A stretch of DNA of 31,107 nt from a virus (taxonomy: Duplodnaviria; Heunggongvirae; Uroviricota; Caudoviricetes): IMG/VR virus record IMGVR_UViG_2713896798_000014; one strand, written 5' to 3'. The notes beneath the pieces were generated by a model, which was not told where the DNA came from, made no database searches, and worked only from the letters and a program-made list of their open reading frames with translations. The position numbers were made by a program, and so were the translations under genes. This document shows positions 4,274 through 26,155 of the stretch, piece by piece; positions within the stretch are counted from its first letter, which is position 1, and each line of letters starts with the position of its first letter.

Positions 4274-4632
4274 TTCTTATTCTCCGGTGCTTTCGGCATT
4301 ACTGCCCAGTGAGTGATATTGACCTTTTCAAGGTCCCCGACCTGAAATGTCCACTGCCATTCTCCGGTTTCTTTTTGTCCCCAGGTGTACCAGAGAGAAC
4401 GCCAGCCAATTAGCCAGCCTTCTCCGTTAGCATCAAATAACAGAACACTTTCATTTGCTGGCGGCAGTTCAGCTGACACTGGTATTATTTTGTTTTCCAG
4501 TGCCGCACATTTAGCTTCAAGCGCATCGAATTTACGTACCAGGTACTCAGCATTTGTTTCATTCACTTTCAGATCTCGCGGTACACATTTCCCGCGAAGA
4601 AACCCTTCCATTTCGAAAACATTCATGCGCAT
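4270..4632 (-). CDS. yfdS: DUF551-like phage protein, YfdS-like
   Basis: 120 aa, same length as K-12 YfdS as recalled; C-terminal W...HWAVMPKAPE pattern; GGAG 8 nt upstream of ATG 4632. Confidence 0.55.
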   Translation of the reverse strand: MRMNVFEMEGFLRGKCVPRDLKVNETNAEYLVRKFDALEAKCAALENKIIPVSAELPPANESVLLFDANGEGWLIGWRSLWYTWGQKETGEWQWTFQVGDLEKVNITHWAVMPKAPENKK

Positions 4633-5159
4633 TTGCGTAACTCCGATAACTCGTTAAAACGTTCCATAAACATCCCGTAGGCATGGCCTGGCGACAGTGG
4701 AATAACTTTGAACATCTCTGTTGCCGGGATACCTTCCAGAACAGGCCAGAAAGAGCCATCATCAAGCCCGAGATCACGGCGTTCGGTTGCCAGCATAATG
4801 AGATCGGCATATTTCACTGGCGTGCTCATAACAGGAGGTAACCCGTATTTCTCACGGATTACGGCGTCTATTTTTTCTTCCATCCGTTTATAGTCAGGAA
4901 GAAGTCGTTTCAGTGGCGCGGGGATGTCCTGGCAATATGCTTCTGTTGCATCATGCATTAACGCTTCAAAAGCAAATTCTTGCGGCACCAGCTGGCTGCA
5001 AAGCACCGCATGCTGGGCGACACTGTAGAAGTGTGAAAGATGTCCTGCAAAGCGACAGATATTTGAAAGGGAAACTGCGATATCGTTAATATCGATGTTG
5101 TCTTTATTTATCCTGTCATAATAAAAATGCTTCCCGGAAAAAGTTTTAATAAATGACAT
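4623..5159 (-). CDS. yfdR: HD-domain phosphohydrolase (5'-deoxynucleotidase-like), YfdR-like
   Basis: H..HD metal-binding pattern (SVAQHAV...ALMHDATEAY); start set at ATG 5159 (GGAG + 6 nt) giving 178 aa, matching K-12 YfdR length as recalled. Confidence 0.7.
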   Translation of the reverse strand: MSFIKTFSGKHFYYDRINKDNIDINDIAVSLSNICRFAGHLSHFYSVAQHAVLCSQLVPQEFAFEALMHDATEAYCQDIPAPLKRLLPDYKRMEEKIDAVIREKYGLPPVMSTPVKYADLIMLATERRDLGLDDGSFWPVLEGIPATEMFKVIPLSPGHAYGMFMERFNELSELRKCA

Positions 5160-5286
5160 TTTGTTCTCCACGTATATGCGCTGCACTGCGCTGAGCTCGG
5201 GTAAAAGGAAGCCCTCACCATCCGGCGATTATTGAGTCAATTACGTTTCCATAAATGCCCCCGCAGGGGCATTTGCAGTAATGAAA

Positions 5287-6111
5287 TCAGGCGGTGAAAG
5301 TACCAATAAAGGTTTCTACTTTGCTGTCCTTGAATTTCTCAACAAGCAGATCACGAAATTCGTTAGCCATTTCTTCCTGGACTGCTTCCAGCTGAATAAT
5401 GCGCAGAACCAGTACAGGACGATCGCCAGTGATAATGCTGAGGCGTAATTTAAACGGACGTTCTTTCAGGCCTTCAAACGGAACGCATTTAAATTCAAAT
5501 GCCACTGGCATAATGTCTTTGGTCTTCGCTTCGACAGACTCCATCAGGGAGCGTTTGCCGCTGAAGTCATTATCTTCAAAATCAGCGGTCTGGTTTGCTT
5601 CAATCGTGATTTTACGGACTGCCGCAGCCGCTTTTGTTGCCTGAATGGTGTCACCATTAGCATCAAAGCCTACAAGGTAGTCGGCCCAGTCTTCGATCCA
5701 TTCTGCCAGTGACTTCTGGGAGTTACGCTCGCCATTAACAGACAACAGAGCAGAGAACGGTGCTGTCTTTTTCAGTTTGAGAGTGGCAGTGTTATCTGCG
5801 TGACCTGGTTCATCAATAGTACCCAGGTTAAGCACACTGACGGCACGCATATTATCGGCATCGATAAAGCAGCGGGTGCCTTCATCTGCAAGATCTTTAG
5901 AATAACGGGTAAAGTCATCGATGCTGGCAGTGGAAAGCGCACCACGGAAACGGAAGCGATTTAAATTAAATTTTTCCAGATCATGAATGCGGAAATTCTC
6001 AGGCAATGCCACAGCATCGGCACCAATCTTACTGATAATTTCATTAACACCCTGAGCAGAAATAAGGGCATGGATTTGATTAATTGCGGTTGCGTCTAAG
6101 TTCTGAGACAT
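5287..6111 (-). CDS. yfdQ: YfdQ-like protein (DUF2303 family)
   Basis: 274 aa, same length and gene-order position as K-12 CPS-53 YfdQ as recalled; GAGGA upstream. Confidence 0.65.
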
Positions 6112-6176: not shown

Positions 6177-6539
6177 TTAATGACCTGCTGCGCGTAGTTT
6201 TCCGTCAGGTTCACCGGCAAGAGTCAGTAATTGTCCCTGGTCTTCCTGCAGAATAGTCAGGCGACCACCGCGATTGACATACATCGGCGTTTCGGTGGTG
6301 TCTTCTTCGGAAATTTTCCCGCGGTTAGTCGGGCGAACATATGAGAGTTTGTGTTTGATTTTCACACGGTTCTCATCAAATGGTTCGATTTCCAGGTTGA
6401 GTGAGACCTTACCTTTGGTTTTCGTGTTCATCACACCGGAAGCGACTTCACTGAGAACTGCGCCGATTTTGGTTTCAAATACGCCGCCGTCCAGCTCCCC
6501 GATAAATGCCTGCACATCAGTACTGCGTTCGCTAGCCAT
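6177..6539 (-). CDS. hypothetical phage protein (YfdP-position)
   Basis: Start set at ATG 6539 (GAGGAG + 7 nt); the 62-codon in-frame upstream extension in the track is Cys/Arg/His-rich and overlaps an RNA hairpin. Confidence 0.55.
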   Translation of the reverse strand: MASERSTDVQAFIGELDGGVFETKIGAVLSEVASGVMNTKTKGKVSLNLEIEPFDENRVKIKHKLSYVRPTNRGKISEEDTTETPMYVNRGGRLTILQEDQGQLLTLAGEPDGKLRAAGH

Positions 6540-6587
6540 TTTGCTGCTCCTCATCATATCGACCCTGCAAGGTCGGTTGGTTTCTCC

Positions 6588-6721
6588 ACAAAACAGAGAA
6601 GAACACCTGCGGTGGCAGCCGCCCGGATGGATTGGGTTATGAGCCCGTCGTCCGGTGATGCTCTTCTCTGTTTTGTAAAAAGAGCGGTACCAGCCGGAAG
6701 CAAGTGTACAAACTGGTACCG
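6588..6721 (-). promoter_or_regulatory. nutL-like element: boxA-like CGCTCTTTTTA plus two long hairpins in the leftward leader
   Basis: Minus-strand CGCTCTTTTTACAA (6686-6673) matches the boxA consensus with one extra T; perfect 15-bp stem 6588-6602/6662-6676 (59-nt loop) and perfect 9-bp stem 6685-6693/6713-6721. Confidence 0.45.
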
Positions 6722-7153
6722 CCAAAGCAGTGGCTGTTGTGGTGATCGGTGATGATCTCCGGCTTGCGGTTATTTCAGACTCTCACGGGCATTTAATTGC
6801 CCCGCCGAACAGCTCTTTTCCGCAATAGCTGCAATGTCTTTCGCGCATCAGCCTGCGCATTCACCACAACGCTGAGAGCACTTAGCCAGTTACGGCACCA
6901 CACTTTGTCGCGGTTCCATAAATGCCCTCATAGTTGCACCCTGGTCTCTTCCCAGGCGTCAAACCGAATCGCCACGCTGGTTAGGCGTCTTATCAGCATC
7001 ATCATTGACTTGCACATTCCGGCTACCTGGTTTGTTTGCCCGAGCAAGGAGTGGATTGTCCCCTTTAACGTCCCCAGACCGCTAACGACGCATGTGCCAT
7101 ACGCCGTGTTACAACCAAATTTTGTTAGTACCTTGTTTGTTGGTCTGGAAAGA

Positions 7154-7261: not shown

Positions 7262-7954
7262 TTAATTGTGTCGCTTAAGGGTTTGTGACTGGCTGATTAA
7301 GACCTTTCCAAAGACCATAAACCGGTGTTCATTTTCGCTGGTAATTCCCCATTCACGATAAATCTGGTTATCAGAAATCACCAGTAGTTTGTCAGGTATC
7401 ATTTGCAGTCGTTTGACATAAATTTTATCATCAAAACCAAATACATAGATACCATCTCCATCAAACTGATTGATACTGACATCAACGAAGATGAGATCTC
7501 CTGGCTCAATGGTTGGACACATACTGTCCCCACGAACGTTGATAACTTTAATGTGATTTGCTGGCCGTCCGCCAAACATCGATACAGCATTATCAGTTCT
7601 GTATTCAATGGCATGAATCACATCAATGACATCTCCGCCCTGGATAAGGCCATTTCCCGCACTGGCACTGATATCCAGCATTTCAATACGGAATACATCC
7701 TTCACCTGCGCAATATCCTCACTAATACTGTTTTTACATACAGTATTACTTTTGAAGTCTGAGGTAAAGAGATCAGCAATATCAACACCTAAGCTCCTGG
7801 CAATATTACTCAGGGCTTGTTCAGTGAATTGTTTCTGCTTACCTGTTTCGAGGCGCGAGATATTCGCCGCATCCACTCCTATTGCTTCAGCGAGATCGGC
7901 GATTTTCATGTTCTTCGCCTGGCGAAGTTGTCTGACTCGATTTCCTATGTTCAT
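7262..7954 (-). CDS. cI: CI-type prophage repressor (HTH + LexA-like S24 peptidase domain)
   Basis: N-terminal HTH (RVRQLRQAKNMKIADLAEAIGVDAANISRLETG) and C-terminal S24 pattern with G-D-S-M (VRGDSMCPTIEPGDLIFVD...YVKRL). Confidence 0.85.
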   Translation of the reverse strand: MNIGNRVRQLRQAKNMKIADLAEAIGVDAANISRLETGKQKQFTEQALSNIARSLGVDIADLFTSDFKSNTVCKNSISEDIAQVKDVFRIEMLDISASAGNGLIQGGDVIDVIHAIEYRTDNAVSMFGGRPANHIKVINVRGDSMCPTIEPGDLIFVDVSINQFDGDGIYVFGFDDKIYVKRLQMIPDKLLVISDNQIYREWGITSENEHRFMVFGKVLISQSQTLKRHN

Positions 7955-8051: not shown

Positions 8052-8312
8052 ATGCAATCACCATTACGGAATGTGCGTAAGGCGCACGGATTTACTTTGC
8101 AGCATGTTGCTGCGGGCGTTCAGGTCAATCCAGCGACGCTGAGTCGTATTGAAAGACTGGAACAAATTCCATCTATCGAGCTTGCAGAACGTCTGGCCAA
8201 TTTTTTTAAGGGAGAAATCAGCGAAATGCAGATTCTCTATCCTGCACGCTTTCAATCTAGTCAAAACCGGAATGAGTTAAAACCACAGGAACAGGAGGTA
8301 AGCCGTGGGTAA
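8052..8312 (+). CDS. cro: Cro-like HTH regulator
   Basis: 86 aa, divergent from cI; HTH segment GFTLQHVAAGVQVNPATLSRIER; GGAGG upstream. Confidence 0.7.
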   Translation: MQSPLRNVRKAHGFTLQHVAAGVQVNPATLSRIERLEQIPSIELAERLANFFKGEISEMQILYPARFQSSQNRNELKPQEQEVSRG

Positions 8313-8856
8313 GCATCACTGGAAAGTGGAAAAACAGCCTGAGTGGTACGTGAAAGCTGTCAGAAAAACTATCGCGGCGTTGCCGGGGGGTTACGCTGAA
8401 GCTGCTGAGTGGCTGGATGTAACAGAGAACGCTTTATTCAACCGCCTTCGTGCCGATGGCGATCAGTTTTTTCCGTTGGGATGGGCAATGGTTTTACAGC
8501 GTGCGGCTGGTACTCACCACATTGCGGATGCTGTCGCACAGTCTGCTGGTGGGGTGTTTGTATCACTTCCAGAAATTGAGGAAGTAGAGAACGCCGATAT
8601 AAACCAGCGCCTGCTGGAAGTCATCGAACAGATCGGGAGTTACTCAAAGCAGATTCGTTCGGCAATCGAAGATGGGGTAGTGGAGCCACACGAGCAGACA
8701 GCAATTAATGATGAGTTGTATCTGTCAATTTCGAAGCTCCAGGAGCATGCAGCACTGGTCTACAAAATCTTCTGCGCTCCAGAAAAGAGTAACGCCCGCG
8801 AGTGTGCAGCTCCGGGCGTCGTGGCGTTTTGTGTCTGTGGAGAAACTAACGCATGA
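8305..8856 (+). CDS. CII-like phage regulatory protein (family uncertain)
   Basis: GTG start with AGGAGG 6 nt upstream; position after cro; motif ...NRLRADGDQFFPLGWAMVLQRAAGTHHIADAVAQSAGGVFVSLP resembles enterobacterial CII-like regulators as recalled. Confidence 0.45.
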   Translation: MGKHHWKVEKQPEWYVKAVRKTIAALPGGYAEAAEWLDVTENALFNRLRADGDQFFPLGWAMVLQRAAGTHHIADAVAQSAGGVFVSLPEIEEVENADINQRLLEVIEQIGSYSKQIRSAIEDGVVEPHEQTAINDELYLSISKLQEHAALVYKIFCAPEKSNARECAAPGVVAFCVCGETNA

Positions 8857-9455
8857 ACAGTTTAACGGCAAATAACCGTTTGTCGCAACAGCTGGTGGTC
8901 AGTGTCGCTGCACACCTGTTGTTACGGCATGAATGCAGATTACCAAATCACCTGGCTGTAAGTAACCACAGAGAACTTTACCTGACTGTGGGGGGCGAGT
9001 TGTGCAGGAACTTAACCGCTGGTTTCGTGACGGAAGAGGACTTTATGTTCATGTTATTCGTTGGGAGCCAGAAACACAGCGCGTTATCTATCTTCGCAAA
9101 GACTACCCGCATGAGTGCTTTAGTCCTTTGTGGAAATTCAGGCGTGATTTTGTTGAGTGTGAAGGACCACCAGCATATTGACTCTGCAATTCCGGGACGT
9201 TACACTGTTCAGGCACCTTATAAAGCGGGTGCCGGGATTGGCGTCCTGAAATTGTCAACGGCGATGTATGACGCGCCAGCGTCTTTTTTATCGTCCGCAT
9301 TTGCTCACATCCAGATTATGGTGGGCTGGGCGGGGGCACCGAAAGGTGCGCCGGTCTCCGTTGACGCCGGTTACGCCAACCCCGTCCAGTTCACCACCAG
9401 TGAAATTGGCGTTTCCGGTGGTGGAAGTTTTTCACTGTCAACGGAGGCTGCCATC
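8853..9455 (+). other. ambiguous coding segment (two competing frames, G6 tract at junction)
   Basis: Frame of 8853 stays open into the Rha gene but reads as low-complexity; a protein-like 59-codon ORF lies in the -1 frame (9002-9181, ...NRWFRDGRGLYVHVIRWEPETQRVIYLRKDYPHECF...); G6 run at 8990-8995 where the frames meet. Confidence 0.3.
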
Positions 9456-10013
9456 ATGGCTACGATCCAAGCCCTCACTCAACCTGAAATCACCATTGAC
9501 AACGGCCAGGCCGTTACCACTTCTTTGGCTGTTGCCAACTTCTTCTCCAAGCGTCACGACGATGTGCTGAAAAAGATCCGCACTCTGGATTGTTCCCCTG
9601 AGTTTTGTGCCCGCAATTTTGCGGAGACATCGATTTCGGTAAATCAACCGAACGGTGGTACACGCAAGCTCCCTTGCTATCAAATCACACGAGACGGTTT
9701 TGCGTTTCTTGCTATGGGTTTCACGGGTAAACGTGCTGCCCGGTTCAAAGAGGCATACATCAATGCCTTTAACCAGATGGAAAAACTGCTTTCAAAGCCA
9801 TCCACGCTGAGCGATGCCGCAGATAACGCCAGCGTGCTTTACTCCCACCTGTCGGTAATCCACAAGGTCTGGCTGCAGCAGCTTTATCCTATGTTGGCAA
9901 AAGCTGAATCTCCGCTGGCTGTTAGCTTATATGATTATATTAATGATGCTTCGGCGCTGGCCTGCCTCATAAATTTGTCGCTGAACCCTTCAGAGGTAAG
10001 GGGGCGCAAATGA
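9456..10013 (+). CDS. Rha-family phage regulatory protein
   Basis: N-terminus MATIQALTQPEITIDNGQAVTTSLAVANFFSKRHDDVLKKIRTL matches Rha-domain pattern; GGAGG 7 nt upstream of ATG 9456; track reports this as the C-terminus of a 386-aa ORF. Confidence 0.65.
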   Translation: MATIQALTQPEITIDNGQAVTTSLAVANFFSKRHDDVLKKIRTLDCSPEFCARNFAETSISVNQPNGGTRKLPCYQITRDGFAFLAMGFTGKRAARFKEAYINAFNQMEKLLSKPSTLSDAADNASVLYSHLSVIHKVWLQQLYPMLAKAESPLAVSLYDYINDASALACLINLSLNPSEVRGRK

Positions 10014-10234
10014 TCCGGAATATTTTCAAACGGTTTACCAATCAGACTTTCCGTTGTCCTCGTCCGGGTCAGTGGTACACCACACCTGCAGGGCATGTTC
10101 TACGTGTTAGCCTGGTTGACCGTGAATGTCAGAAGGTGATTTGTGAACCGCTTGGCCGTAATTACCGCGTCAGTATGCCGCTTATAGCCTTTCGCTCCGG
10201 AAAAAACATGAAGCATCTCGGAGGTGCAGCATGA
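10010..10234 (+). CDS. hypothetical small protein
   Basis: 74-aa ORF coupled at both ends (ATGA overlaps at 10010 and 10231); no family recognised. Confidence 0.4.
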   Translation: MIRNIFKRFTNQTFRCPRPGQWYTTPAGHVLRVSLVDRECQKVICEPLGRNYRVSMPLIAFRSGKNMKHLGGAA

Positions 10235-11049
10235 GTATGGAGCTGATGGTTAAAGCGATGAAAATTCGAGTGGGTAATCCATTGCGAAAACTGGTTCTGA
10301 TCAAGCTGGCTGATAATGCCAGCGATCAGGGTGAGTGCTGGCCCAGCTACCAGCATATTGCTGACCAGTGCGAGATTAGCAAACGTTCTGTGATGAATCA
10401 TATTGCGGCTCTTTGTGATTCCGGACTGGTAAAAAAAGTCACCCGGAAAGGTGAAAAAGGTAACTCAAGTAATATCTATCTCCTTCATCTTGATGGTGCA
10501 GGAGATTCACTAGGGGGTAGTGCAAATAATTCACTATCTGGTGCAGCAAATTCACCAGGTAGTGCAGGAGTTGCACCAGGGGGTGGTGCAGGAGATTCAC
10601 CCAGAACCAGTCACTCTTTTGAACCAGTCAAAGAACCAGTCAATGAACCAATAGCTGTTGGTGCATCTGCTGATGAGTCTGTGCGAGTTCGTTCAAACCG
10701 ACCGGAATACTCTCCGGAGTTTGAGCTGGCATGGCTGGCATACCCCAAACGTGCTGGTGGCAATTCAAAATCTGCAGCCTTCAAAGCCTGGAAAGCCCGT
10801 TTGAATGAGGGGGTAAAACCCGAAACCATGCTGGAAGGTGTGAAACGCTACGCGGGCTGGGTATCTGCGATGGGTAACAGCGGCACACAATTTGTGAAAC
10901 AGGCTGTCACGTTCTTTGGCCCGGATCGTCATTTCGAAGAGTCCTGGGAAGTTCCTGCGGTATCTGCAGCCAGACGCGAGGACCCGTACTTCAAAGCCAG
11001 TTACGACAACGTGGACTACAGCCAGATCCCGGCAGGATTCAGGGGGTGA
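10231..11049 (+). CDS. replication-initiator-like protein (O-like, N-terminal HTH) containing iterons
   Basis: GGAGG 6 nt upstream; N-terminal winged-helix-like segment; Gly/Ser/Ala-rich linker encoded by ~22-bp direct repeats, analogous to lambda O/ori. Confidence 0.55.
   Translation: MSMELMVKAMKIRVGNPLRKLVLIKLADNASDQGECWPSYQHIADQCEISKRSVMNHIAALCDSGLVKKVTRKGEKGNSSNIYLLHLDGAGDSLGGSANNSLSGAANSPGSAGVAPGGGAGDSPRTSHSFEPVKEPVNEPIAVGASADESVRVRSNRPEYSPEFELAWLAYPKRAGGNSKSAAFKAWKARLNEGVKPETMLEGVKRYAGWVSAMGNSGTQFVKQAVTFFGPDRHFEESWEVPAVSAARREDPYFKASYDNVDYSQIPAGFRG
10495..10650. repeat. iteron-like direct repeats, candidate phage replication origin
   Basis: Five ~21-24-bp units each with GTGCA...TTCAC (GTGCA at 10497, 10520, 10541, 10562, 10586), then three copies of GAACCAGTCA (10604, 10621, 10633). 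Confidence 0.55.
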
Positions 11050-11051
11050 TC

Positions 11052-11144
11052 ATGAGTCTGTTAAATGACGTTCAGAAATTCATTGAAGCCCATCCGGGCT
11101 GTACTTCCGGAGACATTGCGGATGCTTTTTACGTGGGGGCTTAA
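11052..11144 (+). CDS. possible small ORF (30 aa)
   Basis: GGGGG 5 nt upstream; coupled to flanking genes (stop TAATG overlaps the methylase start). Confidence 0.3.
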   Translation: MSLLNDVQKFIEAHPGCTSGDIADAFYVGA

Positions 11145-14009: not shown

Positions 14010-14026
14010 TTTTGTGGAGAAAGTTG

Positions 14027-14398
14027 ATGCGTGATATTCAAATGGTTCTTGAACGTTGGGGGGCATGGGTGGCAAATAATCACGAGGATGTGGAATGGTC
14101 ATCTGTTGCTGCAGGTTTTAAGGGATTAATTCCTTCGAAAGTAAAATCCCGCCCGCAATGTAGCGATGACGATGGCCTGATCATTAGCTCTGCGATGACA
14201 GTTCTTAAGAAAAAGGAACCGTATCAATACGAATTACTGGAAATGTATTATGTGTATGGGGTTACATTACGGGCGTTGGGGGTAAAACTGGGGATATCAC
14301 TTAATCAGGTTGTTATCAGACTGCAGAAAGCTGAAGGGTTTATTGACGGTTGTCTGGCAATGTTGGGGGTATCTTTAGAAATTGATTGTTACATATAG
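14027..14398 (+). CDS. Q: late-gene antiterminator Q-like protein
   Basis: Position immediately upstream of the late region; GGAGA 6 nt upstream of ATG 14027; family assignment from recollection of Q-like sequences. Confidence 0.6.
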   Translation: MRDIQMVLERWGAWVANNHEDVEWSSVAAGFKGLIPSKVKSRPQCSDDDGLIISSAMTVLKKKEPYQYELLEMYYVYGVTLRALGVKLGISLNQVVIRLQKAEGFIDGCLAMLGVSLEIDCYI

Positions 14399-14431: not shown

Positions 14432-14470
14432 TATAATAACCTCCTGATGATACCTGTTCATTGGGAGGTT
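14432..14470 (+). promoter_or_regulatory. consensus -10 (TATAAT) plus hairpin sequestering the downstream Shine-Dalgarno
   Basis: TATAAT at 14432-14437, 34 nt after the Q stop; perfect 7-bp inverted repeat AACCTCC (14438-14444)/GGAGGTT (14464-14470) whose 3' arm overlaps the GGGAGG ribosome-binding site. Confidence 0.4.
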
Positions 14471-14473
14471 ATT

Positions 14474-15091
14474 ATGGATAAAAATGTAGAGCATGTATTA
14501 GTTGATGCAATTGAAAATAAGCAATCTTTAACAGTCGTTTACTTAGGAGGGAGCCAGCCCGGAACATTAAGGAATATTTCTCCGATTAGTATAAATGGGG
14601 ATAAATTGCGGGCAAGATGCCATAGTTCTGGAGCAGTAAAGGTTTTCAATCTTGGGAAAATACAGTTACCCAGTGACTCCTGCGCGGTATCTATGCACTA
14701 TGGAGATTTAGAAGTTAAAGCTTATGAGACGATGCAGAGCGTAAATGACAACTTTCATGCCCTTTATCCTGAAGGACGATGGGGTGTTGATTTTAATGAG
14801 CATCGCTTTGCTTTATTTGATTTTTTTAAAAACGGGAAACGAAAAAAAACGGCATTTATGGCAATTGAGTTCAGGGAAAGAGATGAAGAGAAAATAATAA
14901 CAGGTGTAACAATTGATATTGGTATATCTGGAACAGTGATTTCTGAGAAGTCCCGAATCCCAAAAAGACGACCATGGGTAGTGGTTGGTCCCGAACACGG
15001 AGAATACAGTACTTATTCAACTTTGGACAAGGCTGCTACAGCGTTTTTTGAGAGGCTTTCGTTGATAGCATCCGGCCTGGAAGATAATTGA
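14474..15091 (+). CDS. hypothetical protein with N-terminal WYL-like domain (cargo gene)
   Basis: 205 aa; N-terminal LTVVYLGGSQPGTLRNISPISINGDKLRARCHSSGAVKVFNLGKI fits the WYL pattern as I recall it; visibly AT-rich; start at 14474 (GGGAGG + 5 nt) preferred over track ATG 14447. Confidence 0.55.
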   Translation: MDKNVEHVLVDAIENKQSLTVVYLGGSQPGTLRNISPISINGDKLRARCHSSGAVKVFNLGKIQLPSDSCAVSMHYGDLEVKAYETMQSVNDNFHALYPEGRWGVDFNEHRFALFDFFKNGKRKKTAFMAIEFRERDEEKIITGVTIDIGISGTVISEKSRIPKRRPWVVVGPEHGEYSTYSTLDKAATAFFERLSLIASGLEDN

Positions 15092-15224
15092 TTTTATGTT
15101 TGGTATTCAGAGTTCTCCGTGCTTAAGAAAGTCAAGATTCTAAAAATACTGAATGAGCTACTTGTGTTATAACAAAAATGCTATTAGTGTGTTAAGAGTG
15201 GTTACTTCGCCACACAACTTAAAC

Positions 15225-15245
15225 CCGCCGCTGAGCGGTTTTTTT
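15225..15245 (+). terminator. candidate weak rho-independent terminator
   Basis: Short GC stem (CCGC/GCGG) followed by T7 run. Confidence 0.35.
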
Positions 15246-15369
15246 GTACCTGTAAACCTGGTGCAGTACAGTAAACACGCTGGTGGTCGTGAATACTGGC
15301 TTTTTATCTTGCTGGCTTTTTAGACAAGAGTTATTGGTATGTCACGTTAACCGGAAAGGGTAAAAAGAC

Positions 15370-15567
15370 ATGCTGAAACAGCAGGATATGACAGAAACCG
15401 CCAGAGTTGTGTTTGATGAATTAAGCGTTACCGAACCGGCGACAGTCGGGGAGATTGCGCAGAATACTTACCTTTCACGCGAACGCTGCCAGTTAATACT
15501 GACCCAGCTTGTTATGGCGGGTCTGGCAGACTATCAGTGCGGTTGTTACAGACGCCTTCAGTCCTGA
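15370..15567 (+). CDS. small putative DNA-binding protein (winged-helix-like)
   Basis: 65 aa; segment ATVGEIAQNTYLSRERCQLILTQLVMAGL looks HTH-like; followed directly by a strong terminator. Confidence 0.45.
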   Translation: MLKQQDMTETARVVFDELSVTEPATVGEIAQNTYLSRERCQLILTQLVMAGLADYQCGCYRRLQS

Positions 15568-15580
15568 AGGCTTTTTATTT
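15554..15580 (+). terminator. rho-independent terminator
   Basis: 7-bp stem GCCTTCA/TGAAGGC with 4-nt loop, then TTTTTATTT; overlaps the stop codon. Confidence 0.7.
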
Positions 15581-15635
15581 GTGGTGAATGGGCGGCTGGT
15601 GGGGGGGCGACACCTGTCAGTCCTTTGCTTATGTG

Positions 15636-15666
15636 TTGATGATAATTTACCTTTTGGGGCTATAAT
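15636..15666 (+). promoter_or_regulatory. candidate promoter for the AraC-family gene
   Basis: Perfect TATAAT at 15661-15666, 36 nt before ATG 15702; weak -35 TTGATG with a long spacer; a G7 run lies just upstream (15601-15607). Confidence 0.35.
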
Positions 15667-15701
15667 TGAGCTAACCAATTGCTAATGAAAGTAAAATTAT
15701 A

Positions 15702-16415
15702 ATGGCTGTTGTCTGTTCAGTTATCATGGTTTGCTCCCCAATTAATATTTTTCTTGAAAAGGATACGTTGTCACTTAAGCCAGGCTCAGTTGTTCTGGCC
15801 ACCAAATGCATCAGGGAGCTTTTCCTTATGCATTATGGCAAAGTTAAAATTGTCGATATAAGCGAATCCGTCGTAAGTCAATATCTGGAAAGTCAGCATA
15901 AGCTGACGAGGACTCGTCTGACTGACATTCCGCTTTACCTGTTGCTGGAACCCAACAATCCTGCGTTGGCTGCGGCTTTAATTACCAGCCAGGGATTTTC
16001 CGGAGAGGCCACGGATATGTTTCTTATGATGGCCTGCCTGTCTCTGTTTGAAACAGATGAACGGATGTCATTGTTTTTAAGTGGATGTTTATCCAGCATA
16101 AGTGCCAAAGTCAGGGCGATAATTCAGACAGATATATCAGCAAGCTGGACGCTTGGTGCGATTGCTCTACAGTTGCATATGAGTGAGAGTTTGTTAAAGA
16201 CAAAACTGAAAAATGAAGGGGGCATGTTCAGTCGCTTGTTGCTGGAAGAGCGGATGCGTGTTGCTGTAAATATGTTATGTTCCCGGCATGGATATGGACA
16301 GGCTATAGCAGAAAAATGCGGTTATTCAAGCAGGTCCTACTTTATTTCTGTATTTCACCGCTATTATGGCTTCCCGCCAGACAGATATGTATCCAGGCAA
16401 GGGCTTGATTATTGA
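15702..16415 (+). CDS. AraC/XylS-family transcriptional regulator
   Basis: C-terminal double HTH (WTLGAIALQLHMSESLLKTKLK...GYSSRSYFISVFHRYYGFPPDRY); AT-rich; start uncertain (15702 or 15828). Confidence 0.75.
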   Translation: MAVVCSVIMVCSPINIFLEKDTLSLKPGSVVLATKCIRELFLMHYGKVKIVDISESVVSQYLESQHKLTRTRLTDIPLYLLLEPNNPALAAALITSQGFSGEATDMFLMMACLSLFETDERMSLFLSGCLSSISAKVRAIIQTDISASWTLGAIALQLHMSESLLKTKLKNEGGMFSRLLLEERMRVAVNMLCSRHGYGQAIAEKCGYSSRSYFISVFHRYYGFPPDRYVSRQGLDY

Positions 16416-16443
16416 TTTTCATCTGATTATTATTTTTTGGCTC

Positions 16444-16519
16444 GGCCCTTTAGCTCAGTGGTGAGAGCGAGCGACTCATAATCGCCAGGTCGCTGGTTCA
16501 AATCCAGCAAGGGCCACCA
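16444..16519 (+). tRNA. tRNA with CAU anticodon (Ile2/Met-type, ileZ-like)
   Basis: 76 nt; acceptor stem GGCCCTT/AAGGGCC, anticodon loop CTCATAA, T-loop GGTTCAAATCC, 3' CCA. Confidence 0.8.
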
Positions 16520-16528
16520 TATTACATA

Positions 16529-16605
16529 CCGCTATTAGCTCATCGGGACAGAGCGCCAGCCTTCGAAGCTGGCTGCGCGGGGTTCAAGTCCCCGATGGCG
16601 GTCCA
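16529..16605 (+). tRNA. tRNA-Arg (anticodon UCG)
   Basis: 77 nt; anticodon stem CCAGC/GCTGG with loop CTTCGAA; T-loop GGTTCAAGTCC; 3' CCA. Confidence 0.8.
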
Positions 16606-16618
16606 TTATCAGCATCAT

Positions 16619-16695
16619 GCGTTGTTAGCTCAGTCGGACAGAGCAATTGCCTTCTAAGCAATCGGTCAGTGGTTAGACTCCACTACAACGCGCCA
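16619..16695 (+). tRNA. tRNA-Arg (anticodon UCU)
   Basis: 77 nt; anticodon stem ATTGC/GCAAT with loop CTTCTAA; 3' CCA. Confidence 0.8.
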
Positions 16696-16708
16696 CACTT
16701 ATTTTCCA

Positions 16709-16734
16709 GGCTCGCTTCGGCGGGCCTTTTTTGT
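16709..16734 (+). terminator. rho-independent terminator after the tRNA cluster
   Basis: GGCTCGC-TTCG-GCGGGCC hairpin followed by TTTTTTGT. Confidence 0.65.
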
Positions 16735-16864
16735 ATCTGCGCCACGCCCGGCGCATATCAACCACAGAGCCTTTCGGGGGTGAGCTTACGGAGTGGTCAG
16801 TGTGACTTTCTCTGTGGGCAGATCGCTCCCGGGCGTTGGCTCACCCACCCAAAGGAACGTCACG

Positions 16865-17296
16865 ATGTTTGGAATCTTCAAAAAGAAAACCCGCAGAGCG
16901 GCAGCGGAAATTAAAAAGTTTGAGAAACGCGATCTGGCACAGGCGGTGATTAACGCTGCATACCTGGTGGCCTATGCAGATGGTGAATGCGAGGCATCCG
17001 AGAAAGCGAAGATCGAACAGGTCTTACGTAATCAGCCTGCGTTGTCTGCGTTTACCTCGGAAATTAATGCGATTAGCGCAACCATTATCGGTCAGCTGGA
17101 TACCAATTTTAAAATTGGTCGTCGTGCCGCGTTACGCGAGATTGAGGATGTGAAACACGATACGCGTGAAGCGGAAGATGTGCTGGATGTGGCGGTGGCC
17201 ATTGCGGAGGCAGACGGCGAAATTGAGCCGGAAGAGCGCAAGGTGCTGGAAGAGATTGCCGGTGTTCTGGGTCTTCGTCTGGAGAATCACCTGTGA
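16865..17296 (+). CDS. TerB-like domain protein
   Basis: Two repeats of the ...A.ADGE.E..E pattern (AAYLVAYADGECEASEKAKIEQVL; VAVAIAEADGEIEPEERKVLEEI); start at ATG 16865 with AGGAA upstream. Confidence 0.65.
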   Translation: MFGIFKKKTRRAAAEIKKFEKRDLAQAVINAAYLVAYADGECEASEKAKIEQVLRNQPALSAFTSEINAISATIIGQLDTNFKIGRRAALREIEDVKHDTREAEDVLDVAVAIAEADGEIEPEERKVLEEIAGVLGLRLENHL

Positions 17297-17460
17297 CGGT
17301 AAAACTGCGCCTGGCTGTGGCTGCACTCCTGCTGTTTCTGGTGGTGATGGTGGATCTCACCAGCAGAATCATGTCGGTGCTGGCGGATGGGGTGCTGGTC
17401 TGCGGCATTGTGGTATTGCTGTGGCCGGTGATAAAAAGAAACAGCCTGCATAATGCTTGA
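17293..17460 (+). CDS. small predicted membrane protein (55 aa, two hydrophobic segments)
   Basis: GTG start overlapping the TerB-like stop (GTGA); hand translation VTVKLRLAVAALLLFLVVMVDL...VLVCGIVVLLWPVIKRN; below track cutoff. Confidence 0.4.
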   Translation: MTVKLRLAVAALLLFLVVMVDLTSRIMSVLADGVLVCGIVVLLWPVIKRNSLHNA

Positions 17461-17772
17461 TTTTTTTATTTGCTGTTTATTAAAAACACTTCTGCATGGT
17501 GAATCCCCCTGTGCGGAGGGGCGATCAGCAACCAGGTATATGGGATAATCGCGGATTCAGGTGCTGATACTGAATTCACCGGGAGGCACCCGGCACCATG
17601 CTTTGCCACAAAAGTGTTGTTTCTGTTTTTCTCAAACTATCATCATTATCCCTTTATTTCCGGCTGCGCATGGCGTGGCTTTTTTTACGACCAGCCACTG
17701 GCAGATGGCCATCCTGTAATTTGATTCCGGTTCCGGCTTTTTAACTCTGTTCCTGTACACGGGAGAAATTCG

Positions 17773-19623
17773 ATGTCGATTAAACATTATGATGTTGTCA
17801 GGGCGGCGTCGCCGTCAGACCTTGCGGAAAAGCTGACACATAAACTGAAAGAGGGCTGGCAGCCGTTTGGTAGTCCGGTGGCCATAACCCCTTATACCCT
17901 GATGCAGGCGATTGCAGCAGAAGGTGATGTGGTGGTCAGTGGTGCAACTGAGCCGGAGTGGTACTACGTCATCGTACTGGCCGGGCAGTCCAATGCCATG
18001 GCTTACGGTGAAGGGCTTCCGCTGCCGGATTCATACGATGCTCCGGATCCGCGCATTAAACAGCTGGCGCGCCGCAGTACAGTGACGCCGGGTGGGGCTG
18101 CCTGCAGATATAACGATATTATTCCGGCCGACCATTGCCTGCATGATGTGCAGGATATGAGTACGCTGAATCATCCGAAGGCAGACCTGAGCAAAGGGCA
18201 GTACGGCTGTGTCGGCCAGGGGTTACATATTGCCAAAAAACTGCTCCCGTATATCCCGAATAACGCGGGGATCCTGCTGGTACCATGCTGTCGTGGTGGT
18301 TCGGCATTCACCCAGGGCGCGGAGGGGACATTCAGTGCGGACACGGGGGCCAGCCAGGATTCGGCGCGCTGGGGTGTGGGTAAACCGTTATATCAGGACC
18401 TGATTGCGCGCACCAAAGCTGCATTACAGAAGAACCCGAAAAATGTGTTGCTGGCGGTGTGCTGGATGCAGGGAGAGTTTGACATGAGCGCCGCCACCCA
18501 CGCACAGCAACCTGCGCTGTTTACAGCCATGCTGAAGCAGTTTCGTGCTGACCTCACTGTGTTTAACGCGCAGTGTCATGGTGGCAGTGCTGCAGATGTG
18601 CCGTGGATTTGTGGTGACACGACGTATTACTGGAAAAATACATACGCTACCCAGTACGACACCGTGTACGGCGGGTATAAAAACAGGGAGAGTGAGGGCG
18701 TTTATTTTGTGCCCTTCATGACAGACGGTAACGGCGTTAATACCGCCACTAACGCGCCGGCAGAAGATCCGGATATTCCGGCATCAGGATATTACGGTGC
18801 GGCATCGAGAACGAATGGAAACCAGGTATCATCAAACCGCCCGACACATTTCAGTTCATGGGCGCGCAGGAGCATTATTCCGGATCGTCTGGCAACCGCT
18901 ATTCTGAACGCAGCCGGGCGCACCTCAGCCTTCATCAGTGGTAAGGCACCGGAAATCAAACCCTCGCCCGGCGGCAACACGCCATCGGGTCCGTCTGCAG
19001 ATACGTCCGTTCGCACAATCTCCCTGCTGCCGGCAGCCGGAGAGGCTGCTGCGCAGGGCTGGAGCATTAAGGATGGCGGAATTCAGTTGTCAGATGGTGT
19101 ATTTAAGATCACCAAGCAGAGCAATAAAACCTGGTCCCTGACGCATCCGGTGGATGACGCAATTACCCTGCTGACACAGGGTGGCAGACTGAACTGTAAG
19201 TTCCGCCTGTCAGGCGCACTGACCAACAATCAGTTCGGGCTGGGGATTTATCTGTATACGGATGCTCCCGTTCCTGATGGTGTGGCGATGACGGGTACCG
19301 GTAATCCGTTCCTGATGTCGTACTTCACTCAGACCACTGACGGCAGAGTGAATCTGATGCATCACAGGAAAGCCGGAAACACGAAGCTGGGGGAGTTCGG
19401 CGATTACGGTAACGACTGGCAGACGCTGGAGCTGGTGTTCACCGCCGGCAGTGCCACGGTTACTCCGAAACTGAATGGAGTGGCTGGCCCGGCATTCCAG
19501 GTTATAAAAGACAGTCTGAAAGTGGGGCTGAATGCGCTGACGTTAACTGACATCACAAAAGGTGCCACGTACGGCGTTGAGATAGAAAGTCTGGTGCTGG
19601 AGATAAATACACTGGCAGCATAA
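17773..19623 (+). CDS. nanS: NanS-p-like sialate O-acetylesterase (DUF1737 N-terminus + SGNH/SASA-like domain)
   Basis: N-terminus MSIKHYDVVRAASPSDLAEKLTHKLKEGWQPFGSPV and esterase block VIVLAGQSNAMAYGE; GGGAGA 6 nt upstream; occupies the position of Stx-phage yjhS/nanS-p. Confidence 0.75.
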   Translation: MSIKHYDVVRAASPSDLAEKLTHKLKEGWQPFGSPVAITPYTLMQAIAAEGDVVVSGATEPEWYYVIVLAGQSNAMAYGEGLPLPDSYDAPDPRIKQLARRSTVTPGGAACRYNDIIPADHCLHDVQDMSTLNHPKADLSKGQYGCVGQGLHIAKKLLPYIPNNAGILLVPCCRGGSAFTQGAEGTFSADTGASQDSARWGVGKPLYQDLIARTKAALQKNPKNVLLAVCWMQGEFDMSAATHAQQPALFTAMLKQFRADLTVFNAQCHGGSAADVPWICGDTTYYWKNTYATQYDTVYGGYKNRESEGVYFVPFMTDGNGVNTATNAPAEDPDIPASGYYGAASRTNGNQVSSNRPTHFSSWARRSIIPDRLATAILNAAGRTSAFISGKAPEIKPSPGGNTPSGPSADTSVRTISLLPAAGEAAAQGWSIKDGGIQLSDGVFKITKQSNKTWSLTHPVDDAITLLTQGGRLNCKFRLSGALTNNQFGLGIYLYTDAPVPDGVAMTGTGNPFLMSYFTQTTDGRVNLMHHRKAGNTKLGEFGDYGNDWQTLELVFTAGSATVTPKLNGVAGPAFQVIKDSLKVGLNALTLTDITKGATYGVEIESLVLEINTLAA

Positions 19624-23383: not shown

Positions 23384-23569
23384 TCTCACGCAGAGAAAAA
23401 ATTCCCGTTTCAGGGCAGTTAACATGTTAACTGGCTGTCCGGGCATTTTTGCGGTTTTTATCTTTATTATTCAGTTTGTTGCGTGGGTAACCGGCTCATT
23501 TAAACCGTCTGGTCTGTTTCCTCCGGCTCTACAAAAATAATGTCCATCATTTTTAATGGACACTATCGT

Positions 23570-24217
23570 ATGAAACACCGGACCTGGATCACTGAAGCTT
23601 TACGTCTTCACTTTGAAGAACATTTACCCCGGGTTGTGGCCGGGCGTCGCCTGAGTGTACCAAAATCAACAGTTTGTAGTATGTTCGTGCGCTTTCGGAG
23701 AGCTGGCCTTTCGTGGCCTTTGCCCGCAGGCATGTCGGAGCAGGAACTTGATGCCTGCCTTTACGGACAATTTTCCACGGTACCAGTCGTACGTCCTGAA
23801 AGCACCGTTATATCCGAAGCCCCCGTGGTAAAAAAACGTCCCCGGCGGCCCAACTTCCCTTATGAGTTTAAAATCGCCTTAGTGGAGCAGTCACTACAGC
23901 CCGGAGCCTGTGTGGCGCAGATCGCCCGGGAAAACGGAATCAACGATAACCTGCTCTTCAACTGGCGCCATCAATACCGGAAAGGTGGCCTGCTGCCTTC
24001 CGGAAAAAATATGCCGGCACTGCTTCCCGTGACGTTAACGCCGGAGCCGGATAATAAAATCCCGGCCCCCGCACAGGAACCAGAGCAGATAAATACACCG
24101 TCCGACAGTCTGTGTTGTGAGCTGGTTCTGCCGGCCGGAACTCTCAGGCTTAAAGGTAAACTGACGCCGGCGTTATTACAGACACTTATCCGCGAAATAA
24201 AAGGGAGCAGCCACTGA
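23570..24217 (+). CDS. IS66-family accessory protein (orf1/TnpA-like, HTH)
   Basis: HTH segment ...CVAQIARENGINDNLLFNWRHQYRKG; start uncertain (23540 or 23570). Confidence 0.6.
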   Translation: MKHRTWITEALRLHFEEHLPRVVAGRRLSVPKSTVCSMFVRFRRAGLSWPLPAGMSEQELDACLYGQFSTVPVVRPESTVISEAPVVKKRPRRPNFPYEFKIALVEQSLQPGACVAQIARENGINDNLLFNWRHQYRKGGLLPSGKNMPALLPVTLTPEPDNKIPAPAQEPEQINTPSDSLCCELVLPAGTLRLKGKLTPALLQTLIREIKGSSH

Positions 24218-24564
24218 TGATATCTCTCCCTGCAGGTTCGCGTATCTGGCTGGTTGCAGGTATCACCGATATGCGAAATGGCTTTAACGGCCTGGCATCA
24301 AAAGTTCAGAACGTCCTGAAGGATGACCCGTTCTCCGGACACCTGTTCATCTTCCGCGGACGCCGGGGTGACCAGATAAAAGTGTTGTGGGCTGACAGTG
24401 ACGGACTGTGCCTCTTCACCAAACGCCTGGAGCGGGGCCGCTTCGTCTGGCCAGTCACCCGTGACGGCAAGGTGCACCTTACTCCGGCTCAGTTATCCAT
24501 GCTTCTTGAAGGTATCAACTGGAAGCACCCGAAACGAACGGAACGCGCTGGAATCCGCATATAA
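24217..24564 (+). CDS. IS66 Orf2 (TnpB-like) protein
   Basis: 115 aa; MISLPAGSRIWLVAGITDMRNGFNGLA...HLFIFRGRRGDQIKVLWAD typical of IS66 Orf2; ATGA coupling. Confidence 0.8.
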   Translation: MISLPAGSRIWLVAGITDMRNGFNGLASKVQNVLKDDPFSGHLFIFRGRRGDQIKVLWADSDGLCLFTKRLERGRFVWPVTRDGKVHLTPAQLSMLLEGINWKHPKRTERAGIRI

Positions 24565-24583
24565 CCCGTTGTAAAGTGAGGAT

Positions 24584-26155
24584 ATGGACACCTCACTTGC
24601 TCATGAGAACGCCCGCCTGCGGGCACTGTTGCAGACGCAACAGGACACCATCCGCCAGATGGCTGAATACAACCGCCTGCTCTCACAGCGGGTGGCGGCT
24701 TATGCTTCCGAAATCAACCGGCTGAAGGCGCTGGTTGCGAAACTGCAACGTATGCAGTTCGGTAAAAGCTCAGAAAAACTTCGTGCAAAAACCGAACGGC
24801 AGATACAGGAAGCACAGGAGCGAATCAGCGCACTTCAGGAAGAAATGGCGGAAACGCTGGGTGAGCAATATGACCCGGTACTGCCATCCGCCCTGCGCCA
24901 GTCTTCAGCCCGTAAACCGTTACCGGCCTCACTTCCCCGTGAAACCCGGGTTATCCGGCCGGAAGAGGAATGCTGTCCTGCCTGTGGTGGTGAACTCAGT
25001 TCTCTGGGATGTGATGTGTCAGAGCAACTGGAGCTTATCAGCAGCGCCTTTAAGGTTATCGAAACACAACGTCCGAAACAGGCCTGTTGCCGGTGCGACC
25101 ATATCGTGCAGGCACCAGTACCTTCAAAACCCATTGCACGCAGTTATGCCGGAGCGGGGCTTCTGGCCCATGTTGTCACCGGGAAATATGCAGACCATCT
25201 GCCGTTATACCGCCAGTCAGAAATATACCGTCGTCAGGGAGTGGAGCTGAGCCGTGCCACACTGGGGCGCTGGACAGGTGCTGTTGCTGAACTGCTGGAG
25301 CCGCTGTATGACGTCCTGCGCCAGTATGTGCTGATGCCCGGTAAAGTCCATGCTGATGATATCCCCGTCCCGGTCCAGGAGCCGGGCAGCGGTAAAACCC
25401 GGACAGCCCGGCTGTGGGTCTACGTCCGTGATGACCGTAACGCCGGTTCACAGATGCCCCCGGCGGTCTGGTTCGCGTACAGTCCGGACCGGAAAGGTAT
25501 CCATCCACAAAATCACCTGGCCGGTTACAGCGGTGTGCTTCAGGCCGATGCTTACGGTGGTTACCGGGCGTTATACGAATCCGGCAGAATAACGGAAGCC
25601 GCGTGTATGGCTCATGCCCGGAGAAAAATCCACGATGTGCATGCAAGAGCGCCCACCTACATCACCACGGAAGCCCTGCAGCGTATCGGTGAACTGTATG
25701 CCATCGAGGCAGAGGTCCGGGGCTGTTCAGCAGAACAGCGTCTGGCGGCAAGAAAAGCCAGAGCCGCGCCACTGATGCAGTCACTGTATGACTGGATACA
25801 GCAACAGATGAAAACACTGTCGCGTCACTCAGATACGGCAAAAGCGTTCGCATACCTGCTGAAACAGTGGGATGCACTGAACGTGTACTGCAGTAATGGC
25901 TGGGTGGAAATCGACAACAACATCGCAGAGAACGCCTTACGGGGAGTGGCCGTAGGCCGGAAAAACTGGATGTTCGCGGGTTCCGACAGCGGTGGTGAAC
26001 ATGCGGCGGTGTTGTACTCGCTGATCGGCACATGCCGTCTGAACAATGTGGAGCCAGAAAAGTGGCTGCGTTACGTCATTGAACATATCCAGGACTGGCC
26101 GGCAAACCGGGTACGCGATCTGTTGCCCTGGAAAGTTGATCTGAGCTCTCAGTAA
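24584..26155 (+). CDS. IS66-family transposase (TnpC)
   Basis: 523 aa; N-terminal leucine-zipper-like region, CxxC...CxxC zinc motif, conserved core typical of IS66 transposases. Confidence 0.85.

Follow-up and report, generated by a model that had tools for sequence, protein, structure and literature searches.

Five iterons and a conserved block within a phage initiator gene

The 31,107-nucleotide stretch of Caudoviricetes DNA analyzed here at its full length (IMG/VR record IMGVR_UViG_2713896798_000014; hereafter, the window) contains the early region of a lambdoid prophage. Within this region, an open reading frame (ORF) for a replication initiator protein was found to carry five direct repeats (iterons) and an adjoining conserved block, which are described below as a candidate replication origin. 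The gene and its repeat elements are as follows.

10231-11049, + strand: initiator gene, 272 amino acids (aa), with winged helix, disordered linker, and helical C-terminal domain (C-domain)
10496-10510, + strand: iteron 1, GTGCAGGAGATTCAC
10520-10534, + strand: iteron 2, GTGCAAATAATTCAC
10541-10555, + strand: iteron 3, GTGCAGCAAATTCAC
10562-10576, + strand: iteron 4, GTGCAGGAGTTGCAC, with perfect 5-nt inverted arms, matching both strands
10586-10600, + strand: iteron 5, GTGCAGGAGATTCAC, with CCA between it and the conserved block
10601-10650, + strand: conserved block, CCA-GAACCAGTCA-CTCTTTT-GAACCAGTCA-AA-GAACCAGTCA-AT-GAACCA, proposed unwinding/helicase-entry element

The iterons conform to a 15-bp quasi-palindromic consensus, GTGCA-N5-T(T/G)CAC, in which the GTGCA arm faces GTGAA or GTGCA, and their starts are separated by 24, 21, 21, and 24 bp over an array of 10496-10600. 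An earlier reading of the letters alone (the original prediction) had described five direct repeats sharing GTGCA...TTCAC, and indeed the pattern GTGCANNNNNTKCAC occurred at 10496, 10520, 10541, 10562, and 10586 and nowhere else in the window. Counted over both strands, six matches were observed against 0.23 ± 0.58 in shuffled sequences, none of 100 shuffles reaching six, which rules out a chance origin of the repeats. The same reading had taken one repeat for a perfect GGTGCA/TGCACC palindrome, which needs correction: the arms of iteron 4 extend over only 5 + 5 nt, the sixth position being A (AGTGCA...TGCACC). The three further repeats that it had placed after the iterons correspond to exact copies of GAACCAGTCA at 10604, 10621, and 10633, the only ones in the window, followed by a partial copy, GAACCA, at 10645. 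Tandem-repeat detection (Tandem Repeats Finder), which had been suggested as a check, returned one array with a period of 21 (10516-10567) and one with a period of 12 (10621-10650). Together, the iterons and the block make up codons 89-140 of the initiator ORF (the iterons alone, codons 89-124), and the first copy of GAACCAGTCA is read as R-T-S-H, while copies 2 and 3 are read as E-P-V-K/N. In the array region, Rfam returned only a subthreshold microRNA match, and no sigma-70-like promoter was found.

The initiator protein

The two folded parts of the initiator are encoded on either side of the repeats.

10231-10494, + strand: winged-helix DNA-binding domain, aa 1-88, with its recognition helix at about aa 50-62
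10708-10950, + strand: C-terminal helical domain, aa ~160-240, proposed helicase/loader-recruiting module

Pfam HTH_36 was matched at aa 17-67 (E 2.8e-11; 43.5 bits, with a cut-off of 25), and DnaD_N was matched below the Pfam cut-off. In addition, the family profile matched the structure of a DnaD N-terminal domain (2vn2; E 0.002), and the C-terminal helical domain is weakly DnaD-C-like. Every strong PHROG match was to a replication initiator, among them PHROG 270, "replication initiation protein" (E 2.7e-87), which belongs with PHROG 8540 and 391 to the HTH_36 "O-like" class of phage initiators. The gene was 97-99% identical to the "replication protein" genes of SfV (orf39), mEp460, 2H10, Ayreon, and Stx2a_WGPS2 and 88% identical to sb42 of ST64B.

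The AlphaFold model consists of one winged helix only, a disordered stretch, and a small helical domain, with predicted local distance difference test (pLDDT) values of 92-98 for aa 1-88, 45-54 for aa 90-160, and 93-97 for aa 160-240. The iterons and the GAACCAGTCA block fall wholly inside the disordered interdomain stretch of this model, in agreement with the earlier placement of the repeats in a region coding for a flexible linker.

Nucleotide-level selection across relatives

Related loci were gathered in two ways. Fifty-five came from one-genome-per-species contigs by means of degenerate peptide patterns and are thus unbiased at synonymous sites, and 120 viral contigs were collected with the 27-nt block alone; gene and block occur together in 165 loci overall. 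Among these, each full-length homolog contained three to eight quasi-palindromic 15-mers at a spacing of 21-24 bp, the last interval being almost always 24 bp and, in nearly all loci, 3 bp separating the last iteron from the block. Absence of the repeats from homologous initiator genes that still support replication had been named as a refutation; the array was present in essentially every homolog examined.

One way to account for such an array is slippage within a low-complexity Gly/Ser/Ala/Pro linker, the repeats being a by-product with no function as DNA. The period is a multiple of 3 here (21 or 24 bp), the peptide is likewise repetitive (GAGDSL/GSANNSL...), the linker is predicted to be disordered, and repeat copy number differs among alleles, all of which agree with this account. 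The Escherichia coli alleles vary by whole units, with 1, 2, 5, 8, or 9 iterons and three or four block copies. However, the encoded peptides are wholly different between classes (GAGDSL, GAADNP, SANVAPP, VGPEST, and PMPSDST are unrelated), while the inverted-repeat structure and the 21- to 24-bp spacing persist. Moreover, the frame in which a given DNA repeat is translated changes, both within the gene and between homologs. In the Pseudomonas loci L008-L013, iteron 2 is displaced (spacings of 23 + 22 rather than 21 + 24 bp) and encodes VVQEIHQ instead of GAGDS, and the last iteron plus the first GAACCAGTCA give LVNLLHPEPVT in place of SESPAPRTSH in the Shewanella loci L044 and L048-L050.

Synonymous sites in the adjoining block are frozen as well. 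When codons were compared over 45 loci from hosts of 41-62% GC, AGA, ACC, AGT, CAC, TCT, TTT, and GAA were each used in 100% of the loci, GTC in 90%, and CCA in 85%, whereas the equally conserved residues 1-48 were each encoded by two to six synonymous codons, with the commonest codon at a frequency of 0.3-0.75. Mean pairwise nucleotide identity in a 30-nt window over the block was 0.89, the maximum of the gene, compared with 0.61-0.82 at the N terminus. The frame and codon data already largely refute slippage, and the repeat sequence also follows the recognition helix (see below); we regard this account as extremely improbable. Selection thus acts on the nucleotides of the repeats and the block, whatever peptide they encode. 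Combined, the frame, codon, spacing, covariation, and allele data exclude a purely peptide-level explanation.

Some further observations concern the reading frames of the array. The +1 frame is open over the whole array (10520-10654) and closes at a TAG at 10652-10654, and a CCC closes the last iteron, with the rare codon AGA coming next (10600-10605). A +1 frameshift at CCC-AGA, yielding a truncated DNA-binding protein, was considered and set aside, as the Shewanella homologs retain the nucleotides without that codon context. In Pseudomonas bharatica (L022), a spacer shorter by 1 nt leads to a stop in the +1 frame and a 133-aa protein; this initiator is probably a pseudogene. Left of the array and inside the initiator gene, a terminator-like hairpin with a T-run lies on the antisense strand (TCACCTTTCCGGGTGA CTTTTTTTAC, 10439-10454), about 1.4 such sites being expected by chance.

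Iteron classes and the recognition helix

Seven classes of iteron half-site (GTGCA, GTGAA, GGGC, GTAGGCC, TGCC, GTGAC, and GTGTA) track the classes of recognition helix, as in the following pairs.

Helix S(K/R/E)RSV(M/I/Q)NHI: half-site GTGCA
Helix (S/T)RRSVMxHV: half-site GTGAA
Helix xRSTVKxH(I/V)R: half-site GGGC
Helix DRSTVR(K/R)HIK: half-site GTAGGCC
Helices SK(S/T)AVRxHI and xHSTVRKHI: half-site TGCC...GGCA
Helix SKRSVMRHI: half-site GTGAC

Iteron distance correlated with protein distance more strongly for aa 46-88 (Spearman 0.45) than for aa 1-45 (0.28), both values being uncorrected for shared ancestry. Together with the frame, codon, spacing, and allele data, this pattern fits coevolving initiator-iteron pairs.

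The conserved block as a possible unwinding element

The block is common to all iteron classes and all C-domain types and stands at a fixed distance from the last iteron. In the average of 51 loci, no other 30-bp stretch up to 400 bp away in either direction was less stable than the block (z = +1.84), and a weaker, secondary peak of instability stood left of the array, at -150 to -130. The latter matches, in the window, the left-flanking segment 10440-10499 (38% GC), which is of low stability and includes the 40-bp stretch with the lowest stacking energy in the gene (-47.4; window mean, -54.7). Among 80 viral contigs found by the motif, the block lay inside an ORF with the same N-terminal domain (N-domain) in 77, the other three being cut by contig ends, and in none of them was it an intergenic or plasmid-origin element. 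In more distant members of the family, whose N-terminal helix is different, the block is missing but the linkers are still repetitive.

We prefer to read the block as the segment at which the duplex would open and the helicase enter, a counterpart of the A-rich region of lambda. A different explanation, which concerns the block alone and to which we assign a minor but real chance, is that it marks a recombination joint between N- and C-terminal modules or encodes a peptide motif, RTSHSFEPV, that docks a host protein. Indeed, C-domains are swapped exactly after the block, at least 6-10 unrelated C-domain clusters sharing one N-module; the block is always within the gene; and its peptide sits in a disordered region, as is typical for linear motifs. 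A peptide motif, however, leaves unexplained the invariant rare codons AGA, AGT, and TCT across hosts of 41-62% GC and the retention of nucleotides under a different frame, while a joint alone predicts neither the fixed 3-bp distance to the last iteron nor the coincidence with the stability minimum. Returning to unwinding, we tentatively suggest, as the less probable part of our interpretation, that the GAACCAGTCA repeats might be a universal sequence-specific unwinding/helicase-entry element serving thousands of initiator variants with differing iterons and helicase partners, and that they would be recognized, possibly in single-stranded form, either by the initiator's invariant N-terminal ~48 residues or directly by DnaB-DnaC-type machinery. 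If so, one small phage protein of the E. coli lineage would stand in for lambda O and lambda P together via host DnaB-DnaC, and the system would be a minimal one-protein origin with its cis element encoded in frame within a disordered linker.

Gene neighborhood and helicase loading

The initiator gene occupies the O position in the lambdoid early-right operon of the prophage, after cI, cro, a cII-like gene, an Ash/Rha gene, and a small ORF. Its neighbors are as follows.

7262-7954, - strand: cI-like repressor
8052-8312: cro-like gene
8305-8856: CII/CP76-like gene
8853-10013: Ash+Rha protein gene (PF10554 + PF09669)
10010-10234: small ORF, 74 aa (PHROG 1153)
11052-11144, + strand: remnant of a PerC-like gene (SfV orf40/yfdN), 30 aa
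11144-11797, + strand: phage Dam methylase (Pfam PF05869, E 9.7e-46), the next intact gene and not a loader
Downstream of Dam: RusA, KilA-N, DUF968, and Q, the last of the series at 14012-14398

The original prediction had stated that no P- or DnaC-like loader gene follows the initiator, and this holds for the series from the orf40 remnant to Q. It had also called for a search elsewhere in the prophage: a scan of 30 window ORFs, which left out about ten of at least 90 aa in the lysis, IS66, and integrase region, returned no P (PF06992), DnaC/IstB (IstB_IS21), or DnaB domain. The small ORF at 10010-10234 was considered as a hidden loader and rejected, being missing from the genome-derived relatives, including the loader-less Leclercia locus L004. 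The 30-aa ORF at 11052-11144 is the 162-aa SfV orf40/yfdN PerC-like activator after an internal in-frame deletion; what remains is residues 1-26, with one substitution compared with SfV, and the final four. It stands where relatives have their loader or helicase genes.

In those relatives, the next gene encodes a lambda-P-like protein (PF06992), a DnaC-like protein (IstB_IS21) together with a DnaB-like one, or a Toprim-DnaB fusion, and the type of C-domain predicts which neighbor is present. Among the 58 loci with the C-domain of the window and enough downstream DNA, 23 had DnaC-like and DnaB-like genes, one had a DnaC-like gene only, one had a P-like gene, and 33 had none. These 33 loader-less loci belong mostly to the E. 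coli/Shigella/Salmonella lineage, plus the Leclercia locus. Another C-domain cluster is paired mostly with lambda-P-like genes. The closest relatives outside E. coli, in Phytobacter and Enterobacter (52-65% identity, same C-domain), have a DnaB-like gene, to which Enterobacter L006 adds a DnaC-like gene, and Pseudomonas relatives also encode a DnaC-type loader/DnaB-type helicase beside the initiator. The simplest inference is that the C-domain found in the window engages a DnaC-type loader with a DnaB-type helicase. The E. coli lineage (SfV, ST64B, mEp460, and Eru6 Shiga toxin [Stx] phages) is without loader and helicase genes; thus, the enterobacterial lineage has probably lost its own copies and uses host DnaB-DnaC.

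These neighbors also bear on the idea that the array is an operator, through which the winged-helix protein binds its own gene as a regulator (autoregulation or roadblock) while replication begins at another site or through recombination. Regulators often have HTH_36 or MarR-like folds, the phage is rich in Chi sites and without a Rec module, a class proposed to rely on host recombination, and neither an AT-rich unwinding element nor a DnaA box is present. Yet a gene followed directly in relatives by lambda-P-like, DnaC-like plus DnaB-like, or Toprim-DnaB genes bears the signature of an origin-binding initiator, the strong PHROG matches are all to replication initiators, and no other replication gene was present among the window ORFs scanned. 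An operator is therefore unlikely in our view.

A third C-domain class was observed in the Pseudomonas loci L008-L013 and L025, where the initiator gene is always followed by a conserved protein of ~268 aa (e.g., L008:4893-5696) with no Pfam match, a candidate for a new family of helicase loaders or adaptors.

Distribution of the loader-less module

The module occurs in phages isolated as particles or deposited as complete genomes (SfV, ST64B, mEp460, cdtI, and Ayreon). It is also carried by a 44.6-kb circular E. coli "plasmid" (L179; NZ_CP148393.1, PLSDB) that is a whole lambdoid phage, its annotation listing neither a helicase nor a loader. Of 5,426 complete E. coli genomes, half contain the gene at least partly, and 897 contain it at full length (at least 95% identity). 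Given its presence in isolated and complete phages, in a circular episome, and at full length in these 897 genomes, the loader-less module appears to be functional.

The opposite possibility would be a dead remnant, the loss of DnaC-like and DnaB-like genes having left a nonfunctional origin in a decaying prophage. The IS66 insertion, the internally deleted orf40, and the lack of structural genes in view are in line with decay, and the alleles P0037 and P0042 have lost repeats or block. Decay is nevertheless hard to reconcile with a dominant 272-aa allele of 2,852 member sequences, with the full-length copies in E. coli, and with the same loader-less module in isolated or complete phage genomes and the episome; in addition, 34 of 314 lambdoid phages have an O homolog only, including the plaque-forming LLS (PMC12315714). 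We consider a dead remnant highly improbable.

Members of the family were also seen on other "plasmids" of 38-48 kb from Salmonella, Klebsiella, Microbulbifer, Shewanella, and Arsenophonus.

A proposed replication origin

Taken as a whole, the sequence comparisons argue that the array and the block are probably the replication origin of an "initiator-only" lambdoid prophage, located within the linker-coding part of the initiator's own gene. In the mechanism that we envisage, dimers of the N-terminal winged helix would bind the five 15-bp iterons, about two helical turns apart, and form a nucleoprotein complex similar to the lambda O-some, as the anatomy of the array and the covariation suggest. 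With less certainty, the resulting strain may open the adjacent GAACCAGTCA block, which is conserved in the family and relatively unstable. The weakly DnaD-C-like C-terminal domain would then recruit a DnaC-type loader with a DnaB-type helicase; in the E. coli/Shigella/Salmonella lineage, with its own loader and helicase lost, host DnaB-DnaC would have to serve.

Several points weigh against this interpretation. Binding, unwinding, and autonomous replication are inferred from sequence, and the statistics of helix-iteron covariation are uncorrected for shared ancestry. The AT-richness of the block is only modest in the window (40-47% GC), and the segment at 10440-10499 is less stable. No DnaA box, IHF site, or GATC was present in or beside the array; the nearest DnaA box with one mismatch is at 9856, and no IHF consensus was found within 5 kb. 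Furthermore, the block was never seen outside the initiator gene family in the 80 motif-found contigs, and a conserved short peptide motif may act jointly with the DNA constraint.

Relation to known systems

The original prediction had drawn a parallel to the lambda origin inside O. What stands of it is the layout: the iterons lie inside the initiator's own ORF, at the linker between a DNA-binding N-domain and a partner-binding C-domain, and they are inverted repeats at a spacing of about two helical turns. The lambda origin comprises four 18-bp inverted-repeat iterons (O nucleotides 349-433), spaced by 20, 24, and 23 bp, with an easily melted segment to the right, and here five 15-bp iterons at 21- to 24-bp spacing are followed by the conserved block. 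In lambdoid phages, iterons vary from phage to phage and the adjacent segment is conserved, which is the same pattern as that seen here. At the sequence level, in contrast, no homology to lambda O was detected. The initiator has HTH_36 and lacks Phage_rep_O (PF04492), which lambda O matched in the same scan with an E of 5.7e-36, and BLASTP against lambda O returned only short, weak local matches, the best with 8 of 22 identical residues (pairwise E 0.019). The right-hand element differs too, being a GAACCAGTCA direct repeat of ~40-47% GC rather than an A-rich tract, and no P gene follows. The lambda-like layout of an origin inside the initiator gene thus seems to have been built here on a nonhomologous HTH_36/DnaD-like initiator. 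The O/ori complexes of lambda type in Stx phages have been described elsewhere (PMC7466680).

Over the gene, the window is 98.2% identical to the Eru6 reference, Stx2a_WGPS2 (AP012537.1), and it shows the Eru6 hallmarks, an Ash/Rha gene and then an HTH_36 gene downstream of cI. The Eru typing papers (PMC8044961 and PMC8951638) classify replication regions by gene content only and state that nothing is known about these replication proteins; PMC8044961 uses none of the terms "iteron," "origin of replication," or "direct repeat," and PMC8951638 does not use "iteron." A later study (PMC12315714; Genome Res 2025) recognizes the absence of a helicase loader as an unexplained trait of this phage group and notes that the replication of O-only lambdoid phages "is not yet understood," with no origin located and no iterons mentioned. 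The window resembles the LLS functional type of that study in its single O-like gene, its lack of a helicase/loader and of a Rec module, its 14 Chi sites in 31 kb, and its early-left yfbR-like gene and yfdQ (DUF2303) with an unmatched ORF in the yfdP position. In the relevant literature, we found neither the repeat sequences nor a description of this origin nor published experiments on it, although an earlier passing mention in the SfV or ST64B genome papers is possible.

Iteron plasmids (pSC101, R6K, RK2, and P1) are similar in their direct repeats of ~22 bp, winged-helix initiator, and use of host DnaB-DnaC without a loader of their own. Contacts with a single strand of the unwinding element are known for some of their Rep proteins. 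They differ from the present system, which has no DnaA boxes or IHF site, a single winged helix (tandem in Rep) with a DnaD-C-like bundle, and an origin within coding sequence. The DnaD/DnaB-type replication organizers of Firmicutes and their phages (DnaD and SPP1 G38P/G39P) are a close known system.

The initiator gene defines the Eru6 class of Shiga toxin phages, and Stx production follows prophage replication, so that the origin and its initiator are a possible control point. Because two recent papers describe the replication of loader-less lambdoid phages as not understood, placing a putative origin at 10496-10650 opens the way to direct experiments. The family is also a clean natural case of a coding sequence selected for its nucleotides rather than its amino acids.

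Other features of the window

The Ash and Rha domains begin at about aa 105-117 and the PHROG match at aa 61 of the 386-aa ORF; with domains and match beginning well inside the ORF, the true start is probably downstream of 8853. The early-left operon includes a yfbR-like gene (4623-5186) and yfdQ/DUF2303 (5287-6111), with the unmatched ORF at 6177-6725 in the yfdP position; among the left-arm ORFs scanned, none had a Rec-module domain. Of the 14 Chi sites (GCTGGTGG), about 1 being expected, 11 are on the + strand, with positions including 1580, 8545, 8891, 10753, 12096, 13245, 13516, 15279, 15595, 20947, and 28309.

Between Q and a NanS-p-like esterase gene (17773-19623; DUF1737+SASA), no stx genes are present (region 14447-19623); this interval holds an unknown ORF, an AraC-type regulator gene (15702-16415), and a gene for a TerB-domain protein (16793-17296). 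An IS66-family element with three ORFs (23540-26155; transposase, 24584-26155) and a tyrosine integrase gene (28508-29605, - strand) occupy the position expected for late genes, and the prophage in the window looks rearranged or defective. At the prophage edge, a gene for a SocA/Panacea antitoxin-domain protein (1-573) overlaps a 139-aa partner ORF (570-989), and the two are likely a toxin-antitoxin or defense pair.

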